A DNA stretch of 64,000 nucleotides from Elusimicrobia bacterium GWA2_51_34 (GCA_001799565.1 MGTS01000021.1:192785-256784), one strand, 5' to 3'; positions 6,665 through 46,270 are shown, numbered from the stretch's first letter. Notes: a model not told the origin generated them from the sequence alone. Numbers and translations are program-made.

Positions 6665-6941
6665 TCTTTTTAATGGGGACGGCTTCGAAAATCAGCTGAA
6701 CCAGTATAAGAGAAACAGCGAACGGAACTATAATTATATATTTTTCACGCCGCAAAAACCAAACTGAGCCGGCAAGGAAAACCAGCCGGTACAAAAGCCC
6801 TCCTGCGAACACGGAATAAAAAACCGTATCCGGCGAGTTAAGCGTTTTTTTAAGCGACCAGCGTGCCAGCGCCCCGTTTAACACCCCCGCGGCAAGCCCC
6901 GAAAGAACAGCCATCCGGACTGAATCAATCATAAAAGACAC
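6642..6941 (-). CDS. Small membrane protein, ATP synthase protein I-like
   Basis: 99 aa with 3-4 hydrophobic segments. It overlaps the atpB start by 23 nt and sits where atpI normally lies. The call rests on position and topology only. Confidence 0.5.
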   Translation of the reverse strand: MSFMIDSVRMAVLSGLAAGVLNGALARWSLKKTLNSPDTVFYSVFAGGLLYRLVFLAGSVWFLRREKYIIIVPFAVSLILVQLIFEAVPIKKNGIKRDP

Positions 6942-7024
6942 CAGGTTGCAGGTGACAGGTAACAGGTGGCAGGCAGCAGGTGATAGGGCTCTCTGCCTGT
7001 GACCTGTAACCTGATACCTGCCGC
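6942..7024. repeat. Intergenic imperfect palindrome, word CAGGT/ACCTG
   Basis: Left arm is caggttgcaggtgacaggtaacaggtggcaggcagcaggtg and right arm is cctgtgacctgtaacctgatacctgcc. A 19-nt stretch cctgtaacctgatacctgc is identical to 45060-45078. Confidence 0.85.
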
Positions 7025-7042
7025 CTTTTGTTGACCGTCACA

Positions 7043-9111: not shown

Positions 9112-9151
9112 AAAAAAACGCCGTCCGCCTGAGGCGGACGGCGTTTTAATT
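9112..9151. terminator. Bidirectional intrinsic terminator
   Basis: 12-bp perfect stem acgccgtccgcc/ggcggacggcgt with loop tgag, an A7 run upstream and TTTT downstream. It lies between convergent genes. The stem core CCGCC-N4-GGCGG resembles the CCGCCTAAGGCGG hairpin family. Confidence 0.85.
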
Positions 9152-12346: not shown

Positions 12347-12438
12347 GTAAGTGGTTAGTGGACAGTGATCAGTGGTTAGTGAACAGCAGTGAAAACTTCC
12401 GGCCATTGCCCACTGGCCACTGCTCACTGACCACTTAG
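12347..12438. repeat. Intergenic imperfect palindrome, word CAGTGG/CCACTG
   Basis: Left arm is gtaagtggttagtggacagtgatcagtggttagtgaacagcagtg and right arm is cattgcccactggccactgctcactgaccactta. Confidence 0.8.
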
Positions 12439-13569: not shown

Positions 13570-13604
13570 CCCCTCACTTTTTCCGAAGAGACCAAAGTGC
13601 GGGG
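13570..13604. repeat. H1 hairpin element, degenerate copy (cccctcactttttccgaagagaccaaagtgcgggg)
   Basis: The stem CCCC(T/G)CACTTT/AAAGTGCGGGG is shared with 30977-31013, 41471-41506 and 45900-45934. This copy lies in the 5' leader of the Fe-S gene. Confidence 0.7.
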
Positions 13605-16992: not shown

Positions 16993-17301
16993 TCACTCTT
17001 CGTCCGGCTCCACCCAGTCTATGACCGTGCCGCCGCTGTTCGGATAATACGGGCTTACAAGCCAGTCCATATCGTCGCCTCGCAGAACACGGAAATCCCC
17101 CGCCTTGAACTGCTTATCCTCGTGGATATCCAGCAGCACGGCGTCAAGGGAAGGGACCGGCACAAAAGGATAAAGTTTTTTCAGCACTTCCTCCTTTTTA
17201 TCCGCCGGTATAATATACTCGTCCACATAGCCGCCTTCCACCTTAAGAAGCCGGGTGGGAAACGGCAGCGGCAGGTCCCCAGGCTTATCCATAGTTTTCA
17301 T
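16993..17301 (-). CDS. Hypothetical 102-aa acidic protein, translationally coupled to the DUF1016 nuclease gene
   Basis: Its start ATG overlaps the upstream TGA (ATGA at 17298-17301). I recognise no domain. Confidence 0.6.
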   Translation of the reverse strand: MKTMDKPGDLPLPFPTRLLKVEGGYVDEYIIPADKKEEVLKKLYPFVPVPSLDAVLLDIHEDKQFKAGDFRVLRGDDMDWLVSPYYPNSGGTVIDWVEPDEE

Positions 17302-18371
17302 TTTTCCTCCTTATTTTCCATCTGCTCACCAACAAACAGCCGCTCACGGGCATGCGCTATGGCCCGGCGCAGGCGGGTCTCAAGCGCGGCACGCGGCGGA
17401 AGCTCCGTTAAATACTCCGCGACCCTGATTCCGCTCTTGTCCAGCTCCAACAGTTCCACCTGCTCTTCGGATTTGCCGGCACATAATATAAGCCCGATAG
17501 GAGCCTCCTCGTGCGGCTGGCGCTCGTGCTTATTCAGCCAGCGCAGGTAAAGCTCCATCTGCCCCTTAAATTCCGGCTTAAACTTCTCAAGCTTTAGTTC
17601 TATGGCCACCAGCCGCCGCAGTTTCCGGTGGAAGAACAGCAAATCCAGGTAAAAATCGTCCGGGCCGACCTGCATCCTTTTCTGCCGCGCGACAAAAGTA
17701 AAGCCGGCGCCAAGTTCAAGGATAAAAGCCTCCATCTCCCTTAATATGGCGGATTCAAGGTCTTTTTCCTGATAAGCGCCCTTCAAACCCAAAAAATCAA
17801 GAAAATATGGGTCACGGAAAACCAGGTCAGGGCTGAGCGTATCTTCTTCTTTCAATTTCCGCAACTCAAGTTCGGCTAGTTTGGCCGGCTTCCTGGACAA
17901 AGCCGTACGCTCAAAAAGCATACCGCCGATCTTTCGCTCCATGGTGCGGGTATTCCAATTTTCTATGCGGCACATCTCAGCGTAAAAAGCCCGCTTTAAA
18001 GGGTCTTTAATATAAATCAGGATTTTAAAATGGGTCCAGCTCAATTGTCTCCGCAGCGCGGAGACAATCTTTTCATCACGGAACACTTCAAAAAACCGTA
18101 TCATGTGCCGCAGATTCTTTTCAGACACACCTTCGCCGTACTCCGGCGTGAGAGTTGCAGACAATGTCCTGACGATAGCTTCGCCATACCCCGCCCTGCG
18201 GCTACCTAAAATCTCCAGGCTGATCCTGCGTCCTATTGCCCAATACATTGCCGCTATGCCGGAAGTAACCGCACTCGCAACCCCGACACGCGCCTGTGTA
18301 ATAAGCAAGCGAACATCGGCCAGCAGCCGTGGCGGACACTCCCCGGCATGCTCAATTTCTTTTTTTGACAT
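17298..18371 (-). CDS. YhcG/DUF1016-family PD-(D/E)XK nuclease-domain protein
   Basis: 357 aa. The N-terminal DUF1016 helical region has LSWTHFKILIYIKDPLKRAFY. The C-terminal nuclease core is FYLDLLFFHRKLRRLVAIELKLEKFKPEFKGQMELYLRWL. AAGGAGGGG RBS lies upstream. Confidence 0.85.
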   Translation of the reverse strand: MSKKEIEHAGECPPRLLADVRLLITQARVGVASAVTSGIAAMYWAIGRRISLEILGSRRAGYGEAIVRTLSATLTPEYGEGVSEKNLRHMIRFFEVFRDEKIVSALRRQLSWTHFKILIYIKDPLKRAFYAEMCRIENWNTRTMERKIGGMLFERTALSRKPAKLAELELRKLKEEDTLSPDLVFRDPYFLDFLGLKGAYQEKDLESAILREMEAFILELGAGFTFVARQKRMQVGPDDFYLDLLFFHRKLRRLVAIELKLEKFKPEFKGQMELYLRWLNKHERQPHEEAPIGLILCAGKSEEQVELLELDKSGIRVAEYLTELPPRAALETRLRRAIAHARERLFVGEQMENKEEK

Positions 18372-22160: not shown

Positions 22161-23528
22161 ATGAAAAAAATAATCGTTTTGTTTTTATTTACTGTTCCGG
22201 CTTTCGTGAACGCGCAGAAGATAAAAGCGGCGGAAACAGCAGATAAAACCGTTATTTACAGAACAATCGCCGCCGGACTGCTGCGAAACTGCGCGGGCGC
22301 GGGTAAAAAAATAGCCTTGTACGGCTTTTCCTATTCCGACGGGCGGGATTCCAGGGACGGGGGAGTGGTAGCCGGAAAAATAACCGCAGAACTGGTAAAA
22401 TTAAAAAAAACCAGGGTGATAGAACGGGAAGAAATAGAAAAAGCGCTTGAAGAATTAAAACTTCCGCGCTCCGGCGCCCTAGATCCCGATTACGCCGGAA
22501 CGATAGGCAAAATGCTTGGCGCCGGCTGTGTGGTGACGGGAACTTTAACTGAACTGTCTGATAAACAGTCGGAACTGAACACCCGCCTGGTCAGTGTGGA
22601 ATCCGGTGAAACAATAAGAGCCGCCAACAACCCGATAACAAAAGACTGGCTGGATCAATACAGGGAACTCCTCAAAGAACAAAATAAAGCGGTTGAGAAA
22701 AACTCAAATGACGCAAAGGCATTTTACGAAAGGGGAGTAATATATGCCGATTTGGGCGAATATGACAGCGCTGAAGACAGCTTTGACACAGCGATCAGTA
22801 TTGATCCGGCCTATTTGGCGGCTTATTTAGGAAGGGGAAATGCCTGCGATAAAATGGGAGCATATGATAAGGCAATTGAAGATTATTCCAAAGCGATAGC
22901 CCTCAACCCAAAGTCAGCTCAGGCATATTCCGGCCGCGGGAAGGCCCGCTATGCCGGGGGCGGGCATGGCAAGGCGATTGAAGATTATTCCAAAGCGATA
23001 ACCCTCGCCCCGCGTTGGGGCCAGGCATATTGCGACCGCGGAAACGCCTACTATGCCGGGGGCGGGTATGACAAGGCGGTTGAAGATTATTCCAGGGCGA
23101 TAGTAATAGACCCAAAGCTTGCCAACGCGTATTTATTGCGCGCATCTGTTTATTCCGGGAGAAATGAGCATGAGAAGGCGGTTGAAGATTATTCCAGGGT
23201 GATAGCAATTGACCCCCAATTTGCCGGCGCATATTTATTACGCGGGGATGCCTATTGCAAAAAAGGCTGGTATGACAACGCAGTTGAAGATTATTCCAGG
23301 GTAATAGCAATTGACCCCCAATTTGCCGGCACGTATTTGTTGCGCGGAAATATCTATTACCAGGCAGGCGAATACAACAAAGCAATTAAGGATTTTTCCA
23401 AAGTGATAGAGCTCTCTCCGGAATTTATCGGTTCATATTTATTGCGCGGGGATGTTTATTCTAAGAAAGGCGAGCACGGCAAGGCGGCGGCTGACAGGGA
23501 AAAATTCAAAAGCCTGTCTCAAAAATAA
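22161..23528 (+). CDS. Secreted protein with an N-terminal CsgG/LpoB-like domain and about 7 TPR repeats
   Basis: It has a signal peptide MKKIIVLFLFTVPAFVNA. The repeats have a 34-aa period with motif A(I/V)EDYS(K/R)(A/V)I..(D/N)P..A.AY..RG. Confidence 0.8.
   Translation: MKKIIVLFLFTVPAFVNAQKIKAAETADKTVIYRTIAAGLLRNCAGAGKKIALYGFSYSDGRDSRDGGVVAGKITAELVKLKKTRVIEREEIEKALEELKLPRSGALDPDYAGTIGKMLGAGCVVTGTLTELSDKQSELNTRLVSVESGETIRAANNPITKDWLDQYRELLKEQNKAVEKNSNDAKAFYERGVIYADLGEYDSAEDSFDTAISIDPAYLAAYLGRGNACDKMGAYDKAIEDYSKAIALNPKSAQAYSGRGKARYAGGGHGKAIEDYSKAITLAPRWGQAYCDRGNAYYAGGGYDKAVEDYSRAIVIDPKLANAYLLRASVYSGRNEHEKAVEDYSRVIAIDPQFAGAYLLRGDAYCKKGWYDNAVEDYSRVIAIDPQFAGTYLLRGNIYYQAGEYNKAIKDFSKVIELSPEFIGSYLLRGDVYSKKGEHGKAAADREKFKSLSQK
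22860..23470 (+). repeat. Six 102-bp tandem coding repeats (TPR units)
   Basis: ttgaagattattcca recurs at a 102-bp period. Units starting at 23181 and 23283 are near-identical over about 49 nt (gttgaagattattccagggtRatagcaattgacccccaatttgccggc). Confidence 0.85.
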
Positions 23529-29093: not shown

Positions 29094-29180
29094 CTTGCTG
29101 GTAGGCTAGTATGCTGGTATGCTTTCTGTGGAGTTCCTGAATTAGGCCTACAGGCATACACGCCTACTAGCCTACTCGCC
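29094..29180. repeat. Intergenic imperfect palindrome, word GGTAGGC/GCCTAC
   Basis: Left arm is gcttgctggtaggctagtatgctggtatgc and right arm is gcctacaggcatacacgcctactagcctactcgcc, in the nifU/nifS spacer. Confidence 0.8.
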
Positions 29181-29182
29181 GG

Positions 29183-30026: not shown

Positions 30027-30083
30027 TGGCCTATGGTTGCGCCGTATCTGGCCTATGGGCGATGCCCATCAGACGGCCTAGCC
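30027..30083. repeat. Dispersed copy of the GCCTATGGCTGTGCCGTA... 46-bp unit
   Basis: tggcctatggttgcgccgtatctggcctatgggcgatgcccatcagacggcctagcc resembles the units at 30876-31033 and 37055-37100. Confidence 0.7.
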
Positions 30084-30132
30084 TTCCAACCCTTGTAACT
30101 GATTTTATTAAATACCGGGACCCCGTTCAACA

Positions 30133-30222: not shown

Positions 30223-30852
30223 CTAGCCAAATTCTTTCTTTATCTCTTCACTTTCAAATTTTCTGGCAAGCCAGAAAAAAAGCGCCGTCCCAAAACCGCA
30301 AAAAATCTGAAGCACTAATCTGGCCGCTGTAACCGCCGCGTTAAACTCAGGCGCAAGCGATACCCCCTGATAAAACAAAGGTTTAGGCACGAACAGTTCA
30401 GGAAACAGGAAAATAAGAAATAAAGTCGCCGCGCCGATGTAAAGCAATGGAACAAAACCGCCGCGCCCCCATTTAGCGCGCCTCAAAACTCCAAACCCGA
30501 TCGCCGTAACGGAAAGCCACATTATCAGGGAAAAAAAGAAAAATCCCCGGGTGTGCAGCGCTAGAAAAACGACGGCCGGGGGCGTTCCCGCCGGCACAAC
30601 AGCATTCTCCATGGAAAGCTGGAAAACGGGCGAGGAAAACATTGACATAAATATCAAATTAGACATGGCGAAAAAAAAGCTCAGAAAACCGCCTATCACA
30701 AGAGTCAAAACGGCGATTAGAGTTACAAAACGGCTTCTTTTGTTCCCACCCGCGTTGGGACAGGCTGGCGTTATCCCACCACCTGTCCGCCTAAGGCGGA
30801 CAGGTGGTGGGATTGTTTTTTCAGTTTCACCCGGATCTTCCATCAATTCCAT
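30223..30852 (-). CDS. Polytopic membrane protein of unknown function
   Basis: About 5 TM segments. The N-terminal cytoplasmic tail (..IPPPVRLRRTGGGI..) is encoded by the 37-nt palindrome at 30775-30811. The start is either 30852 or 30843. Confidence 0.6.
   Translation of the reverse strand: MELMEDPGETEKTIPPPVRLRRTGGGITPACPNAGGNKRSRFVTLIAVLTLVIGGFLSFFFAMSNLIFMSMFSSPVFQLSMENAVVPAGTPPAVVFLALHTRGFFFFSLIMWLSVTAIGFGVLRRAKWGRGGFVPLLYIGAATLFLIFLFPELFVPKPLFYQGVSLAPEFNAAVTAARLVLQIFCGFGTALFFWLARKFESEEIKKEFG
30775..30811. repeat. H2 hairpin element, long perfect form: CCCACCACCTGTCCGCC-taa-GGCGGACAGGTGGTGGG
   Basis: 17-bp perfect arms. The core CCGCCTAAGGCGG recurs at 45154-45176 and 45880-45894. This copy lies inside the CDS. 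Confidence 0.85.
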
Positions 30853-30875
30853 TGCCTCCCCCGATAAAAATTTAC

Positions 30876-31033
30876 TAGCCTATGGCTGTGCCGTAACAGG
30901 AGCTATGCTCATCAGACGGCCTAGCCTATGGCTGTGCCGTAACAGGGGCTATGCCTATCAGACGGCCTGGCCTATGCCCCGCACTTTTTCCTCAAACGGG
31001 CCAAAGTGCGGGGCTATGGCTGTGCCGTAACCA
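30876..31033. repeat. Tandem array of a 46-bp unit (2 full units plus a third interrupted by an H1 hairpin)
   Basis: Units start at 30876, 30922 and 30968 (TAGCCTATGGCTGTGCCGTAACAGGRGCTATGCYYATCAGACGGCC). The third resumes after the insertion as ctatggctgtgccgtaaccag. Confidence 0.85.
30977..31013. mobile_element. H1 hairpin element (MITE-like) inserted in the third 46-bp unit with a 5-bp duplication CTATG
   Basis: gcCTATG[ccccgcactttttcctcaaacgggccaaagtgcgggg]CTATGgctgtgcc compares with the uninterrupted gcctatggctgtgcc in the two preceding units. Confidence 0.7.
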
Positions 31034-31054: not shown

Positions 31055-31465
31055 ATGCCGGTAAAACTTATAAGACAATACACCGTTTTTATACCCAACA
31101 TCCCAGGCGCGCTCAGCAAGTTTGTAGAGCTATTCGCCAAGGAAGGCGTAAATATTATAGGAATAGCCTCCGAAATACGCGATGATTCCGGAGTGGTACG
31201 CATAGCGATAGACGCGGACCGCAAGTTAAGCCATGTTCTTACCGGCGCCGGCTTTACCACCATAGAAACCTCACTGATTTCCCTGGAACTGCCTGATAAA
31301 CCCGGCCAATTGCTGCGCCTTACAATGATCCTGGGCGCGAACAATATAAACATCACCACCGTTTATGGCACTTCGGTCGGCGGGGCGGCCGGACGCCTGC
31401 TTCTGAATGTTTCTGACGGGGAAAAAGCGCTGGATGTGCTTAAAGCTGAACTGGAGCTGAAATAG
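31055..31465 (+). CDS. Tandem ACT-domain protein
   Basis: 136 aa with two repeats of the pattern ...GALSKFVELFAKEGVNIIGIAS... / ...PGQLLRLTMILGANNINITTVYG... Confidence 0.7.
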   Translation: MPVKLIRQYTVFIPNIPGALSKFVELFAKEGVNIIGIASEIRDDSGVVRIAIDADRKLSHVLTGAGFTTIETSLISLELPDKPGQLLRLTMILGANNINITTVYGTSVGGAAGRLLLNVSDGEKALDVLKAELELK

Positions 31466-37000: not shown

Positions 37001-37137
37001 AGCGGTTCCGGGTTCACATTTCCGGGTTCAAGGTTATCTTTTCACTATATTTTTTCGAGGCTATGCCAGTGCCGTATCAGAGACTATGCCTATCATATGG
37101 CCAACCGTTGAACCATTAAACCGCTGAACCTTAAACC
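37001..37137. repeat. Intergenic imperfect palindrome, word GGTTCA/TGAACC, with a nested copy of the GCTATGCC... unit
   Basis: Left arm is gcggttccgggttcacatttccgggttcaaggtt and right arm is aaccgttgaaccattaaaccgctgaaccttaaacc. The centre (37055-37100) is gaggctatgccagtgccgtatcagagactatgcctatcatatggcc. Confidence 0.8.
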
Positions 37138-41410: not shown

Positions 41411-41553
41411 CTGTTCAGGTGAATAGGCTGTAGGCAGTTAGACTATTAGGTAAGAATCCGATTTGGCTAACCCCGCACTTTGGCCCTTTTCAGAAAAAGT
41501 GCGGGACTAACAGCCTAATAGCCTACAGCCTTCAGCCTAAACAACCGGTACTG
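41411..41553. repeat. Intergenic imperfect palindrome, word TAGGC/GCCTA, with an H1 hairpin nested at its centre
   Basis: Left arm is ctgttcaggtgaataggctgtaggcagttagactattaggtaag and right arm is ctaacagcctaatagcctacagccttcagcctaaacaaccggtactg. Confidence 0.8.
41471..41506. mobile_element. H1 hairpin element with flanking CTAA duplication
   Basis: ggCTAA[ccccgcactttggcccttttcagaaaaagtgcggga]CTAAcagcc. Confidence 0.6.
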
Positions 41554-43856: not shown

Positions 43857-45029
43857 ATGGAACAGGCCAAAGACGACATTATAATTTACGGTGGCAGTTT
43901 TGACCCTCCGCACAAAGGGCACACTGCGCTGCTTTGCGCGGCCCTGAGGGAAATCAAGCCGCGTCGCATCTACGTGGTTCCTGCGTTCCAATCACCGTTT
44001 AAAGACGCGGCTCCGGTTTCTTTTTTAAACCGTTTCAACATGCTGAAGCTCTCTTTGGGCGCCGTCCGCCCGATACGGACAACAAGGGCAAGCCGTTTTG
44101 AGGGCCAAAAAAAGCGCGTTACTTACACTTTTGAAACCATAAAGCATTTCAGGCGTTTGCACCCTGGGGCAAAAATTTATTTTCTGCTGGGTTCCGACTG
44201 CCTGGCCGGCTTTTGGCGCTGGAAAAACCGCCGGGGGATACTTAAAAACGCCGTTTTACTTGTGGGAGCGCGGCGCGGATTTCCGTTTAAAAATTACTCC
44301 AACTTGCCCGGCAGCGCCGTGCGGCGGGTTCCTTTCAGGCGGCTTAAAGGTTTTTTTCCTGAAATTTCCTCCACGTCTTTGCGCGTCGGATTATTGACAG
44401 GGGTCGATAGCCGGTTTATAGCGGCCCCGGTAAAACGCTATATCAGGCAAAAAAAGCTTTATTTTTCAAAGGAAAGGCGGTTTTTAAAACAGCTGCTTAC
44501 GCCCGCGCGCTACGTTCACAGCCTTTCAGTCGCCCGCCTAGCCGCGGAACTCGCCGCCCTGCACGGCGAAAGCCCGCAGAGAGCGGCATTGGCCGGACTT
44601 TTGCATGACGCCGCCAGAGACTTCGGGGAAGTCCGCCTTATGCGCTACGCCGTTTCAAAAAAACTGAAAATTCCCTGTTTTGCGCGGACAGCCGCGCCGA
44701 TTCTTTTGCATTCTTACGCGTCCGCGGAGGTTGCCCGCGGGCGTTTCGGTGTGAGGGATAAAACTGTTTTACGCGCCATCGCTCTGCATACTTCGGGAGC
44801 CGCCCGCATGGACACGTTGTCTAAAATCATATATGTGGCGGATCTGGCGTCGGAAGACAGGAAGTTTTCGCAGGCAAAAAAAATAGCGCGCCTTGCGCGG
44901 CGGGACCTTGACGAGGCTTTCCTCGCGGCCAATTATGTTAAACTCAAATACGCGGCTAAACGGCAGGCCGTAGTTGGAGGAAAGTCATCAGGTCGCAGGT
45001 TACAGGCAACAGGCAGCGATAGTATGTGA
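43857..45029 (+). CDS. nadD: Fusion of nicotinate-nucleotide adenylyltransferase (NadD) and YqeK-type HD phosphohydrolase
   Basis: The N-terminus has GGSFDPPHKGH and the C-terminus has an HD domain (RYVHSLSVARLAAELA...LLHDAARD). I chose the start at 43857 because the ORF-track start at 43755 lies in the palindrome. The last ~15 codons run into the next palindrome. Confidence 0.85.
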   Translation: MEQAKDDIIIYGGSFDPPHKGHTALLCAALREIKPRRIYVVPAFQSPFKDAAPVSFLNRFNMLKLSLGAVRPIRTTRASRFEGQKKRVTYTFETIKHFRRLHPGAKIYFLLGSDCLAGFWRWKNRRGILKNAVLLVGARRGFPFKNYSNLPGSAVRRVPFRRLKGFFPEISSTSLRVGLLTGVDSRFIAAPVKRYIRQKKLYFSKERRFLKQLLTPARYVHSLSVARLAAELAALHGESPQRAALAGLLHDAARDFGEVRLMRYAVSKKLKIPCFARTAAPILLHSYASAEVARGRFGVRDKTVLRAIALHTSGAARMDTLSKIIYVADLASEDRKFSQAKKIARLARRDLDEAFLAANYVKLKYAAKRQAVVGGKSSGRRLQATGSDSM

Positions 45030-45114
45030 CAGGTGGCAGGTATCAGGTAACAGGAAAATCCTGTAACCTGATACCTGCAACCTGTGACCTGTGACCTGTT
45101 GCCTGATACCTGCC
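44989..45114. repeat. Imperfect palindrome, word CAGGT/ACCTG
   Basis: The inner stem gcaggtatcaggtaacagg-aaaat-cctgtaacctgatacctgc matches 18/19 positions. The outer arms are made of looser caggt/acctg repeats. Confidence 0.9.
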
Positions 45115-45153: not shown

Positions 45154-45176
45154 CCCGGCCGCCTAAGGCGGACGGG
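45154..45176. repeat. H2 hairpin element (CCCGGCCGCC-taa-GGCGGACGGG)
   Basis: It has the core CCGCCTAAGGCGG. A related small hairpin TCCGCC-cca-GGCGGA lies at 45133-45147. Confidence 0.7.
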
Positions 45177-45184
45177 TTAACACC

Positions 45185-46270
45185 ATGGAAACTGTGCCAA
45201 AAAAAGAAAGACTGCTGCTGATCTTTGGCTTTACCCTGTGCGCGGCCCTGCTTACGGGGCATTATCTTTCCGGCTTGTCTCGAAACCTTGCCGCCGGCCG
45301 AGACCTTTCAGTAGCGCTGATCGGCGGCAATGCGCCGATGGTGTTTGTTTATCATTCCTTTTCAAAAACTGTGACTGCCGTGCACCTGCCCCGCGAGCGG
45401 TGGAGAAGCGGCGGCTCAAACTATCAAAAAGCCTGCGCGGCGCTGGCCCTGGTTTCCGGCGGACCGCAGGTTCAACGGGAAGATGTTTTTTACCTGGCGC
45501 CGGACGCGCCGGGGGTTGATTTAAGCGCCTTTTATGAAACTTTAAATTCGTGGCGTTCACGGCCCAGGCTGGTTTTAAAAGCCGCGCGCTGGCTGTGGCG
45601 GCTGAAAAAAGAGGAACGAACCAATATCTCTTTCCATGATCTGCTGCTCACGGTTCTTGAATTGTCGCGCCTTAACTCCTCCGACTTTGTTGTTACCGAT
45701 TTTGAACGCGGGGCCGGCCCAAAACCGCAGGCGGACGGTTCAGTCGCGGACAGCGCCAGAGGCCCGCGACAGGCCAGTGTCACAGTCGCGGACAGCGCCA
45801 GGCCGGATGATAGCGCCAGAGGCCACCGGCACGCCGGAGGCAGAAGCCCGCGACAGGCCAGTGTCACAGTCGCGGACAGTCCGCCTAAGGCGGAACAGGC
45901 CCCGCACTTTGGCCCTTTCGGAAAAAGTGCGGGGCAGGCCGGTGTCTTCCCCACACCAGCGGCACGTGTGGGGGCGGTCATACGGGTAGAGGTGTTAAAC
46001 GCCTCCGGCAAAAAAGACCTGGCCATGCAGGTTACCAAATATCTCCGTAAAAAAGGTTTTGACGTAATTGATTTCGGCACTTACACGGGTACCGGGAAGC
46101 TTACAAAAATAGTAAACTGTTCTGGCAATGTGGCCGCCGCCAAAGCCGTTCGTTCGGCTTTGGGGCTTACCGCGCTTGAAATATATTCCAAGTTTGAAGC
46201 GGGCAATGTCGCTGAAGTTTCGGTGATCCTTGGCGAGGATTTTAATGAAGAGATAATAAAAAGTAGATAA
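45185..46270 (+). CDS. Membrane-anchored LytR_C-domain protein with a repeat-derived linker
   Basis: It has an N-terminal TM helix and a C-terminal LytR_C-like domain (IRVEVLNASGKKDLAMQVTKYLRKKGFDVIDFG...VILGEDF). The linker (aa ~185-255) is encoded by palindromic repeats. Confidence 0.7.
   Translation: METVPKKERLLLIFGFTLCAALLTGHYLSGLSRNLAAGRDLSVALIGGNAPMVFVYHSFSKTVTAVHLPRERWRSGGSNYQKACAALALVSGGPQVQREDVFYLAPDAPGVDLSAFYETLNSWRSRPRLVLKAARWLWRLKKEERTNISFHDLLLTVLELSRLNSSDFVVTDFERGAGPKPQADGSVADSARGPRQASVTVADSARPDDSARGHRHAGGRSPRQASVTVADSPPKAEQAPHFGPFGKSAGQAGVFPTPAARVGAVIRVEVLNASGKKDLAMQVTKYLRKKGFDVIDFGTYTGTGKLTKIVNCSGNVAAAKAVRSALGLTALEIYSKFEAGNVAEVSVILGEDFNEEIIKSR
45742..45899. repeat. In-CDS repeat block: 33-nt unit CCCGCGACAGGCCAGTGTCACAGTCGCGGACAG twice (45763-45795 and 45847-45879, 84-nt period), plus H2 hairpin 45880-45894
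   Basis: The units contain inverted repeats GTCGCGG/CCGCGAC and CGCGAC/GTCGCG. The H2 core tccgcctaaggcgga is flanked by ACAG on both sides. Confidence 0.8.
45900..45934. mobile_element. H1 hairpin element inside the LytR_C-protein CDS, flanked by CAGG(C) direct repeats
   Basis: aaCAGG[ccccgcactttggccctttcggaaaaagtgcgggg]CAGGcc. Element plus duplication is 39 nt, or 13 codons, translated as ..APHFGPFGKSAGQ.. Confidence 0.65.

Follow-up and report, generated by a model that had tools for sequence, protein, structure and literature searches.

The miniature inverted-repeat transposable elements of bacteria (MITEs), such as Correia/NEMIS, RUP, ERIC and Nezha, have terminal inverted repeats and a target-site duplication of fixed length and lack coding capacity. 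They are found in many dispersed copies, show filled/empty polymorphism and fold into stem-loops. The well-known examples are about 100 bp long or more. Generally, bacterial MITEs are shorter than 200 bp and reach up to about 400 bp (PMC3184786). Here we analyzed a hairpin element of 34-41 nt, termed H1, in a stretch of 64,000 nucleotides (the window) from Elusimicrobia bacterium GWA2_51_34 (GCA_001799565.1 MGTS01000021.1:192785-256784) and in further genomes and metagenomes. H1 shares all the MITE properties listed above; its copies are many and dispersed, and at 34-41 nt none could encode a transposase. H1 has every structural feature of a MITE except a known parent insertion sequence (IS), and its length is far below the usual size range. 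It is several times smaller than other bacterial MITEs, consists of nearly nothing but two inverted repeats, and has ~40% of its copies within genes. Copies of H1 are insertions with a duplication of defined length, a target bias and matching empty sites, and they persist in frame in real genes. H1 is probably an ultrashort (34-41 bp), MITE-like family of non-autonomous DNA transposons in Elusimicrobia that is moved by a transposase acting in trans.

Other described systems resemble H1 in some respects. Repetitive extragenic palindromic sequences (REPs) and their paired form, the REPINs, are mobilized by REP-associated tyrosine transposases (RAYTs). Like H1 they are GC-rich imperfect palindromes of ~35 nt with a conserved asymmetry that occur singly, in pairs or in clusters, some of them intragenic. 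REPs carry GTAG or CGTC tags, are associated with RAYTs and cause no duplication (PMC2817692, PMC3733652, PMC3184786), whereas H1 has a 4-bp target duplication and neither tag. For the comparison a first set of 68 H1 copies was enlarged to 111 non-redundant copies from Elusimicrobia metagenome-assembled genomes (MAGs) and metagenomes. The oriented flanks of H1 are CTTG, CGGG, TTTA, CCAG, CAGG and others; neither GTAG nor CGTC was among the 15 commonest oriented flanks per side in the 111-copy set, nor anywhere among the flanks of the 68 copies. H1 also differs from REPs in not being predominantly extragenic, with 46 of 68 and 48 of 111 copies in predicted open reading frames (ORFs). The earlier note on this DNA, made from the window alone, had called H1 a MITE- or REP-like non-autonomous mobile element. 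The MITE part of this description holds, given the terminal inverted repeats and the target duplication, and the REP part does not, given the missing tag and the large intragenic share. Palindrome-associated transposable elements (PATEs), which derive from IS200/IS605, insert 3' of a fixed tetra- or pentanucleotide without duplication, while the targets of H1 vary and are duplicated.

Rickettsia palindromic elements (RPEs) are, like H1, palindromic sequences that lie in frame in unrelated housekeeping genes and are tolerated as an extra peptide (PMC10969869). As described, RPEs are set apart by their length of about 100-150 bp and their occurrence in an obligate intracellular alphaproteobacterium, while H1 measures ~35 bp and resides in groundwater Elusimicrobia that are presumably free-living. 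To our knowledge, no target duplication has been reported for RPEs; for H1, both duplications and empty sites are clear. In size and behavior, H1 is closest to the GC clusters of yeast mitochondria (e.g. GC42), with which double-hairpin elements of other fungal and of sponge mitochondria can be grouped. GC clusters are GC-rich hairpins of 32-42 nt with very short direct repeats and a constant end next to variable adjoining sequence, and they merge into arrays (PMC4478555). GC clusters are organellar, mostly intergenic and flanked by repeats of 2-3 nt, whereas H1 is bacterial, often intragenic and flanked by a 4-bp duplication.

Filled and empty sites of H1

The strongest evidence for insertion comes from empty sites. 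Four H1 copies lie in the window (Table 1), all at the coordinates reported in the earlier note; the copies at 41471, 45900 and 13570 also have the flanks given there. Empty sites were found for all four, that of the 13570 copy being approximate only, and for at least six events at other loci. A comparison for insertion polymorphism had been suggested as a check, and filled and empty states do occur at both orthologous and paralogous sites. In every well-defined event of 34-41 nt, the separately aligned flanks overlapped by 4 bp on the empty sequence. Fetched loci carry L-numbers (genome and metagenome stretches, 1.56 Mb in all).

Table 1. Positions of H1 copies and their flanking features in the window, counted from its first nucleotide.
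Feature	Position	Strand	Remarks
H1 copy	30977..31013	-	37 nt; CCCCGCACTTTTTCCTCAAACGGGCCAAAGTGCGGGG; canonical 'a' orientation (GGCC..GGAA) on the minus strand
Left target-site duplication CTATG	30972..30976	.	Intact array units have a single CTATG
Right target-site duplication CTATG	31014..31018	.	Followed by the rest of interrupted unit 3 (GCTGTGCCGTAACC, to about 31033)
Two intact 46-bp units	30875..30966	+	Paralogous empty sites; CTATG at 30880-30884 and 30926-30930 directly before GCTGTGCC
H1 copy	45900..45934	+	35 nt; orientation 'a'; in frame in LytR_C gene 45185-46270, linker
Left target-site duplication CAGG of 45900 copy	45896..45899	.	
Right target-site duplication CAGG of 45900 copy	45935..45938	.	
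H1 copy	41471..41506	+	36 nt; orientation 'a'; terminal G changed to A
Left target-site duplication CTAA of 41471 copy	41467..41470	.	
Right target-site duplication CTAA of 41471 copy	41507..41510	.	
Degenerate H1 copy	13570..13604	-	35 nt; left arm CCCCTCACTTT, one arm mismatch; intergenic

The copy at 30977 interrupts a 46-bp tandem array (30875-30976; 2.2 copies with 92% matches in Tandem Repeats Finder), in which CTATG recurs with a spacing of exactly 46 nt (30880, 30926 and 30972). The first two units are the empty versions of unit 3. In both, CTATG runs uninterrupted into GCTGTGCCGTAAC, whereas unit 3 has the hairpin of 37 nt and another CTATG in between. The earlier note had read this as a precise insertion with a 5-bp duplication. 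The insertion is borne out, since hairpin and second CTATG are found only in unit 3 and units 1 and 2 are intact. CTATG is indeed present on both sides of the copy, but the usual duplication of the family is 4 bp, and the event here was either a 5-bp duplication or one of 4 bp plus one ambiguous base. The copy is intergenic, 42 nt upstream of an ACT-domain gene (31055-31465), and its DNA hairpin has a folding energy of -15.9 to -16.1 kcal/mol (z about -5). The identical ACT protein is encoded on 21 contigs from independent assemblies (nine places listed), and every one of them carries the copy. Strain-level polymorphism at this site was therefore rejected: every such contig is filled, and the insertion is fixed in that population.

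For the copy at 45900, an orthologous empty site was found in a related species (L086, 3550-3567). This locus is syntenic with the window, with the same order of TldD, DUF2064, NadD-HD and LytR_C genes and 69% identity of the LytR_C protein. Its empty site reads ...GTCCGCCTAAGGCGGAACAGGCCGGTGTC... (short form ...GCGGAACAGGCCGGTGTC...), identical to the window sequence once the element and one CAGG are taken out. The location of this copy within a gene, missed by the earlier note, is in frame: the 35 nt plus 4 nt amount to 39 nt or 13 codons, and the copy encodes APHFGPFGKSAG in the LytR_C linker.

The copy at 41471 is intergenic, lies between two TldD/PmbA genes within a repeat family of ~80 nt, and recurs unchanged in strain DMBC01 (L088). 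The flanking repeat has empty copies at L129 (3096-3178), at L140, at L127 and at L210 (2728-2752), a site that lies on the contig of the window, ~0.7 kb outside it. These relatives have a single CTAA or CTAG and no element. This copy had been placed at the exact center of a larger palindrome, which proved incorrect: the palindrome arms (41425-41449 and 41507-41531) are 21 nt from the element on the left and 0 nt on the right. At 13570 the flanks have decayed (TCCA / CCAG, leaving CCA/CCA only) and the hairpin is weak (-7.2 kcal/mol). An approximate empty homologue of this site lies at L120 2682-2737. Another homologue at L120 445-480 is filled, with the duplication CGGG, and has its empty counterpart at L120 2686.

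Outside the window, L176 (filled, CTGG) and L170 (empty) form a pair at a relative of the 46-bp unit, 4-5 nt from the insertion point in the window. L026 and L187 are a filled/empty pair with the duplication CAGG. Filled/empty evidence was also obtained for L115 and L188 (duplication CCCG) and for L038, where the duplication is YAAA and the insertion lies in another hairpin's loop. The window comes from a groundwater contig of 237 kb (Rifle, PRJNA268031), and its sequence recurs in Elusimicrobia MAG GCA_001799745.1 and in 16-21 independently assembled contigs. Because the same insertions are present in these 16-21 contigs from independent samples and assemblers, the hairpins are not an assembly artefact.

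Target sites, anatomy and relatives of H1

Direct repeats flank H1 far beyond chance. When the flanks were tabulated, a check that the earlier note had proposed, identical 4-nt flanks were found for 22 of the 68 copies, compared to 2.7 by permutation of the right flanks (maximum 11 in 20,000), and for 34 of the 111 copies, compared to 4.1 (maximum 12). Shifted-flank controls gave 0-2. The modal target-site duplication is 4 bp, and the duplicated 4-mers follow the pattern YNNR (CGGG, CAGG, CCAG, CCCG, CTGG, CTAA, TTTA, TAAA and others), with C (79%) or T (21%) at position 1 and G (76%) or A (24%) at position 4. G is enriched at -6 and -5 and C at +5 to +7, so that the target is roughly palindromic, GG-YNNR-CC. 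An explanation of the flanks as an extension of the hairpin stem was rejected for true duplications; these repeats are direct, not inverted, and complementarity is limited to the outermost pair (position 4 with position 1).

H1 is essentially a pair of terminal inverted repeats that adjoin back to back, with a short inner stem between them. The arms are 11-bp perfect repeats (CCCCGCACTTT / AAAGTGCGGGG) that reach ~15 bp with two fixed mismatches, and the extended terminal repeat reads CCCCGCACTTT[GG/TT]CC. In oriented form the layout is CCCCGCACTTT-GGCC..loop..GGAA-AAAGTGCGGGG, in which the outer stem of 11 bp is followed by a conserved GG/AA mismatch and then by a variable inner stem. A conserved stem with a varying loop had been described before. 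The arms are conserved and the inner part varies, but the supposed loop contains the conserved mismatch and a short, self-complementary inner stem that covaries: 76 different inner sequences have on average 2.6 consecutive Watson-Crick pairs past the mismatch, compared to 0.46 after shuffling. Either strand folds at about -16 kcal/mol as DNA. Judged by the asymmetric inner part (GGCC..GGAA versus TTCC..GGCC), the element is present in both orientations, as previously claimed. Lengths are skewed to 35, 38 and 41 nt, and many copies form head-to-tail arrays with 4-nt spacers (L014, L025, L033, L073).

A strict pattern with 22 fixed bases was used to follow the family. It matched twice in the window (0.00 expected from shuffles), where the 11-mer with at most one mismatch gave 10 matches (2.7 expected). 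In a scan of one genome per species the strict pattern occurred in 73 stretches, the majority from Elusimicrobia MAGs; by our own arithmetic ~0.4 would be expected by chance in 596 Gb. Strict matches in 52 fetched stretches belong to six Elusimicrobia MAGs (JAUSCK01, JAHJSU01, MGTT01, MGUK01, DMES01 and CAZPMW01) and are concentrated in the first two. A metagenome scan yielded at least 119 stretches with the strict pattern. Viral contigs contained no match to it, and the plasmid collection no match to H1. Rfam scans at gathering and E-value thresholds returned noise only, e.g. microRNA models at E about 0.1. A literature search with the arm sequence retrieved unrelated primer matches only, and we found no paper with the H1 sequence, nor a report of such elements in Elusimicrobia.

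Longer elements share the ends of H1. At L157 (4653-4735) an 83-nt element has a 14-bp inverted repeat (CCCCGCACTTCTGG), a non-palindromic core and the duplication CCAG. Two further 83-nt elements, at L096 (1562-1644) and L188 (3596-3678), have a related inverted repeat (CCCAGCTCTTTTGGCT) and the duplication CCTG. These relatives are laid out as canonical MITEs, with inverted repeats of 14-16 bp and ends that equal those of H1 or are closely related to them. Such ends are also found in a 54-nt type and in a 40-nt type from a Spirochaetota MAG; the latter has a TGA/TCA duplication of 3 bp, and a paralogous site is exactly empty. The 35-nt hairpin is the extreme of a size series (35-41, 54 and 83 nt) that is defined by its termini.

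Two other groups of matches were seen. In JAABU* contigs (L114, L122, L134, L142, L164, L168, L194 and others) the same 11-nt arms occur with longer stems, tatccgTA-[38-59 nt]-TAcggata. Here TA is the only direct repeat and the flanks further out are inverted, which looks like an insertion into the middle of a 14-bp palindrome. A 452-aa ORF without Pfam match lies ~400 nt away in four of these loci, probably through synteny. In a Rothia MAG, strict matches to GTTTCAAAACCCCGCACTTTGTTTC and its reverse complement overlap (L011 1738-1777, L017 16-55); they are unrelated to H1 and belong to a different, larger palindromic repeat.

Many copies lie within genes. Under a simple longest-ORF model, (length + 4) is divisible by three for 40 of the 46 copies in ORFs in the first set, compared to 7 of the 22 others; in the enlarged set, where ORFs of at least 200 aa were counted, this applies to 44 of 48. 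Ten host ORFs were confirmed as real genes by Pfam. The hosts include DNA polymerase I (PolA), a GH94 phosphorylase, methylmalonyl-CoA mutase, TsaD, Memo-AMMECR1, a dCache sensor kinase, NlpC/P60 and the LytR_C gene of the window. Fifty of 82 distinct variants are free of stop codons in all six frames (shuffles 12.5%, shuffled palindromes 40%), and the encoded segments are of the types APHFGPFGKSAG, PRTFS..AKVRG and PALWP..KKCG. Coding copies show a mild sense-strand bias (31 to 17). The common lengths of 35, 38 and 41 nt yield multiples of three when 4 bp are added, and most variants are read without a stop in any frame; insertions into genes thus contribute only a loop of 13-15 residues, rich in Gly, Pro, Ala and Lys, and can persist.

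How H1 may move

In the mechanism we propose, a transposase supplied in trans and encoded outside the window would recognize the two H1 ends and join them to target DNA cut with a 4-bp stagger, and repair of the stagger would generate the 4-bp direct repeats. Because the boundary GGGG-YNNR-CC beside an existing copy would mimic the target, copies would be expected to pile up head to tail with 4-nt spacers. The fixed 4-bp stagger, the palindromic target preference, the defined inverted repeats and the MITE-like relatives suggest a DDE-type cut-and-paste transposase acting in trans. Our leading guess is an IS1380/piggyBac-like enzyme, based on the end sequence (CC...) and the duplication length of 4-5 bp, with IS5- and IS701-type enzymes as alternatives. 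In the ISfinder table, IS1380 elements have CC ends and repeats of 4-5 bp, and they are related to piggyBac (CCC...GGG ends, TTAA target). The ends CC(C)...(G)GG, the 4-5-bp duplication and the short palindromic target (TTAA for piggyBac) resemble H1 (CCCC...GGGG), whose target YNNR is much looser; this likeness serves as a lead and does not amount to a test. IS701, ISH3 and IS1634 likewise produce repeats of about 5 bp (PMC2266710).

The enzyme was sought in the window and among the fetched loci. In agreement with the earlier note, no transposase, RAYT or Y1 Pfam family was recorded among the called genes across the window, where the only nuclease-like gene is DUF1016/YhcG (17298-18371). A search of all loci for a parent IS, as solo H1 ends 70-3,500 bp apart with or without duplication, gave mini-elements, the 83-nt MITEs and chance pairs only. 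All-against-all blastn of the loci for IS-like repeats returned orthologous or paralogous genes only. ISs are often lost from MAGs assembled from short reads.

Several observations weigh against a transposon moved in trans. Neither the window nor the 1.56 Mb of loci, including the sequence beside the copies, yielded an autonomous element or a transposase whose ends match, and no gene family recurred among 1,273 ORFs near copies; their clusters comprise only response regulators, ABC ATPases, transketolase, kinases and similar proteins. A transposase that reads the ends alone does not require the covarying inner stem. This stem may point to a hairpin stage as single-stranded DNA or RNA, or to correction of the palindrome between its arms. 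The divisibility by three in coding copies is partly circular, as a frameshifting insertion would break the very ORF used to call a copy coding. About two thirds of the copies (77 of 111) lack perfect flanking repeats. In part this reflects the age and decay of some copies, in part the head-to-tail arrays, and in part single events that were propagated inside larger repeats, such as the 54-nt type with constant CTTG/CGAG flanks, which sits in a repeat family of ~125 nt. A reading of these constant flanks as a REP-like tag was rejected: one insertion occurred in the ~125-nt repeat and both were then propagated together. Finally, one subgroup always has (G)GGCTTG on one side, whatever the target; its empty site is CGGG, and its filled sites are CTTG..CGGG, CTTG..TGGG or CTGG..CGAG. 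Simple decay of a duplication does not explain this subgroup well. CTTG can pair with CRRG through G-T/G-U wobbles, and a longer stem on one strand may have been selected for, possibly at the RNA level, an idea only.

There is also a wider reading. H1 might be the commonest member of a group of hairpin transposons of 31-85 bp that share the terminus CCCCGCACTTT in several phyla (Elusimicrobia, a Spirochaetota MAG, possibly Omnitrophica and others), are adapted to coding genes and are moved by an enzyme not so far assigned to a described IS family, possibly through a single-stranded hairpin stage; they would be a bacterial counterpart of the mitochondrial GC clusters. The adaptation would lie in a length that, with the duplication, is divisible by three, in a scarcity of stop codons and in the flexible loops encoded. 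We put this forward tentatively and consider it doubtful.

Two other explanations invoke a hairpin intermediate. If H1 were an element of the REP type, a single-copy RAYT, i.e. an IS200/IS605-like HUH tyrosine transposase, would move or copy a folded single-stranded hairpin. The size of ~35 nt and the hairpin do match REPs, which measure 21-65 bp (PMC3184786), and intragenic REPs are known (PMC3733652). H1 copies are found singly, in inverted pairs and in clusters (L014, L025, L033, L073), the GG/AA mismatch distinguishes the strands as bulges do in IS200/IS605 ends, and the covarying inner stem would fit recognition of a fold. This explanation is nevertheless unlikely: IS200/IS605-type transposition takes place without target duplication and without terminal inverted repeats (PMC2817692), whereas H1 has a variable 4-bp duplication and exact empty sites, its flanks are diverse (CNNG or TNNA) and carry no GTAG or CGTC tag, and the non-palindromic cores of the 83-nt relatives are not recognizable as simple hairpins. 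Nor was any RAYT-like motif (HUH...Y or Y..NP[LV][RK].G) found in six-frame translations of the 1.56 Mb, by a crude regular-expression screen of incomplete genomes. We regard it as quite unlikely that H1 spreads without a dedicated transposase, for instance if an unrelated endonuclease made staggered breaks and these captured the hairpin, either as DNA or as RNA after reverse transcription. The fixed duplication length, the palindromic target preference and the sharp ends are hallmarks of transposase-mediated integration, relatives with the classic MITE layout exist, and neither a reverse transcriptase nor a homing endonuclease was seen near the copies. Comparable proposals exist for yeast mitochondrial GC clusters, hairpins of 32-42 nt with flanking repeats of 2-3 nt and a constant end next to variable sequence (PMC4478555). 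Capture would also agree with the finding of no transposase near the copies, and the covarying inner stem together with flank changes that would add G-T/G-U wobble pairs on one strand (CTTG opposite CRRG) hints at a single-stranded or RNA stage. The sense-strand bias of coding copies points the same way but is weak.

That H1 is not mobile at all, but a functional hairpin (e.g. a terminator, an RNA-stabilizing or a coding motif) that is conserved or locally duplicated and has repeats by coincidence, is highly improbable and already contradicted by the data. Some strict matches in other phyla do resemble ordinary terminators, flanked by A-runs and T-runs (L019, L058, L070, L165, L206), and several copies are conserved at orthologous positions across metagenomes. 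Filled and exact empty sites, however, differ by the element plus 4 bp only, at paralogous and orthologous positions alike, and the excess of identical flanks is very large. Furthermore, copies lie within unrelated housekeeping genes, family copies lack a T-run and no Rfam family matches.

Surrounding repeats and implications

The window and the fetched loci contain other repeats, some of them next to H1. A second small hairpin family, (G)TCCGCCTAAGGCGGA(C), is present at 9120-9143, 30782-30805, 45154-45177 and 45876-45899 of the window and may be another mobile hairpin. Its copy at 45876 is flanked by ACAG/ACAG and lies in frame in the LytR_C linker, directly upstream of H1; it is present in the ortholog L086, and the whole segment is missing from more distant orthologs. 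The same linker contains tandem peptide repeats (SVTVADSARGPRQA..., encoded at 45690-45880). A 96%-identical strain (P0001, DMBC01) lacks one 14-residue linker unit, so that the linker varies by repeat copy number as well.

The 46-bp unit interrupted at 30977 belongs to a dispersed repeat family with members at 30875-30966, 37056-37101 and 30057-30084 of the window, at about 1270-1340 of L176 and at 4735-4912 of L170. It also occurs in other Elusimicrobia metagenome contigs, and two independent H1 insertions lie in it at positions 4-5 nt apart. The ~80-nt family around the 41471 copy (..TTAGGTAAGAATCCGATTTGRCTAR CAGCCTAATAGCCTACAGCC..), which consists partly of 8-nt tandem units of the CCTANNAG type, has members at 41417-41540 of the window and at L129 3096-3178, L140 3308-3384, L127 2957-3033 and L210 2712-2781. 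In other Elusimicrobia-like contigs, a GC-rich family of ~125 nt (GGCCTGCGGCCGGCCCGGCGACTTCGCGCCGGTTCCTCCTCGGCCCGATCC...; L139 7872-8004, L096 10123-10309 and 13364-13531, L188 2629-2764, L155 2138-2272, L141 164-366) is a repeated landing site, with insertions of the 54-nt element, the 35-nt element and an 83-nt MITE, two of them at the same TCCTG site.

Away from H1, many intergenic regions contain short arrays of 7-8-nt tandem units (e.g. CAGGTNA / CCTGNNA, TAGCCTAC; families D2, D5 and D7-D9), as at 2604-2652, 6931-7027, 29149-29181, 45026-45114 and 12350-12387, often as facing inverted arrays that flank a gene boundary. At 22959-23468, four to five tandem 102-nt units (60-75% identity) lie within a 455-aa ORF (22161-23528) without Pfam match. 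The segment 12600-18600 has repeats of 30-53 nt upstream of successive genes (families D3, D6, D17), adjoins a tRNA-Cys and encodes the DUF1016/YhcG PD-(D/E)XK nuclease (17298-18371), an ORF6N protein and several proteins without family; it looks like a variable island.

H1 would be among the smallest bacterial elements for which target duplications and exact empty sites demonstrate insertion. If, as we infer, it is essentially no more than a pair of transposase-binding ends, it defines the minimum that such an enzyme requires. The in-frame colonization of housekeeping genes, known from the RPEs of Rickettsia, also takes place in groundwater Elusimicrobia, where real proteins, among them PolA, TsaD and the GH94 phosphorylase, acquire insertions of 13-15 residues and peptide repeats in tandem through H1. 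Elements of this kind are invisible to IS and MITE annotators and inflate the apparent divergence of proteins, and they may break assemblies or confuse ortholog alignment in MAGs. Once identified, the enzyme of H1 would provide a bacterial model for the mobility of the GC-cluster hairpins of mitochondria.

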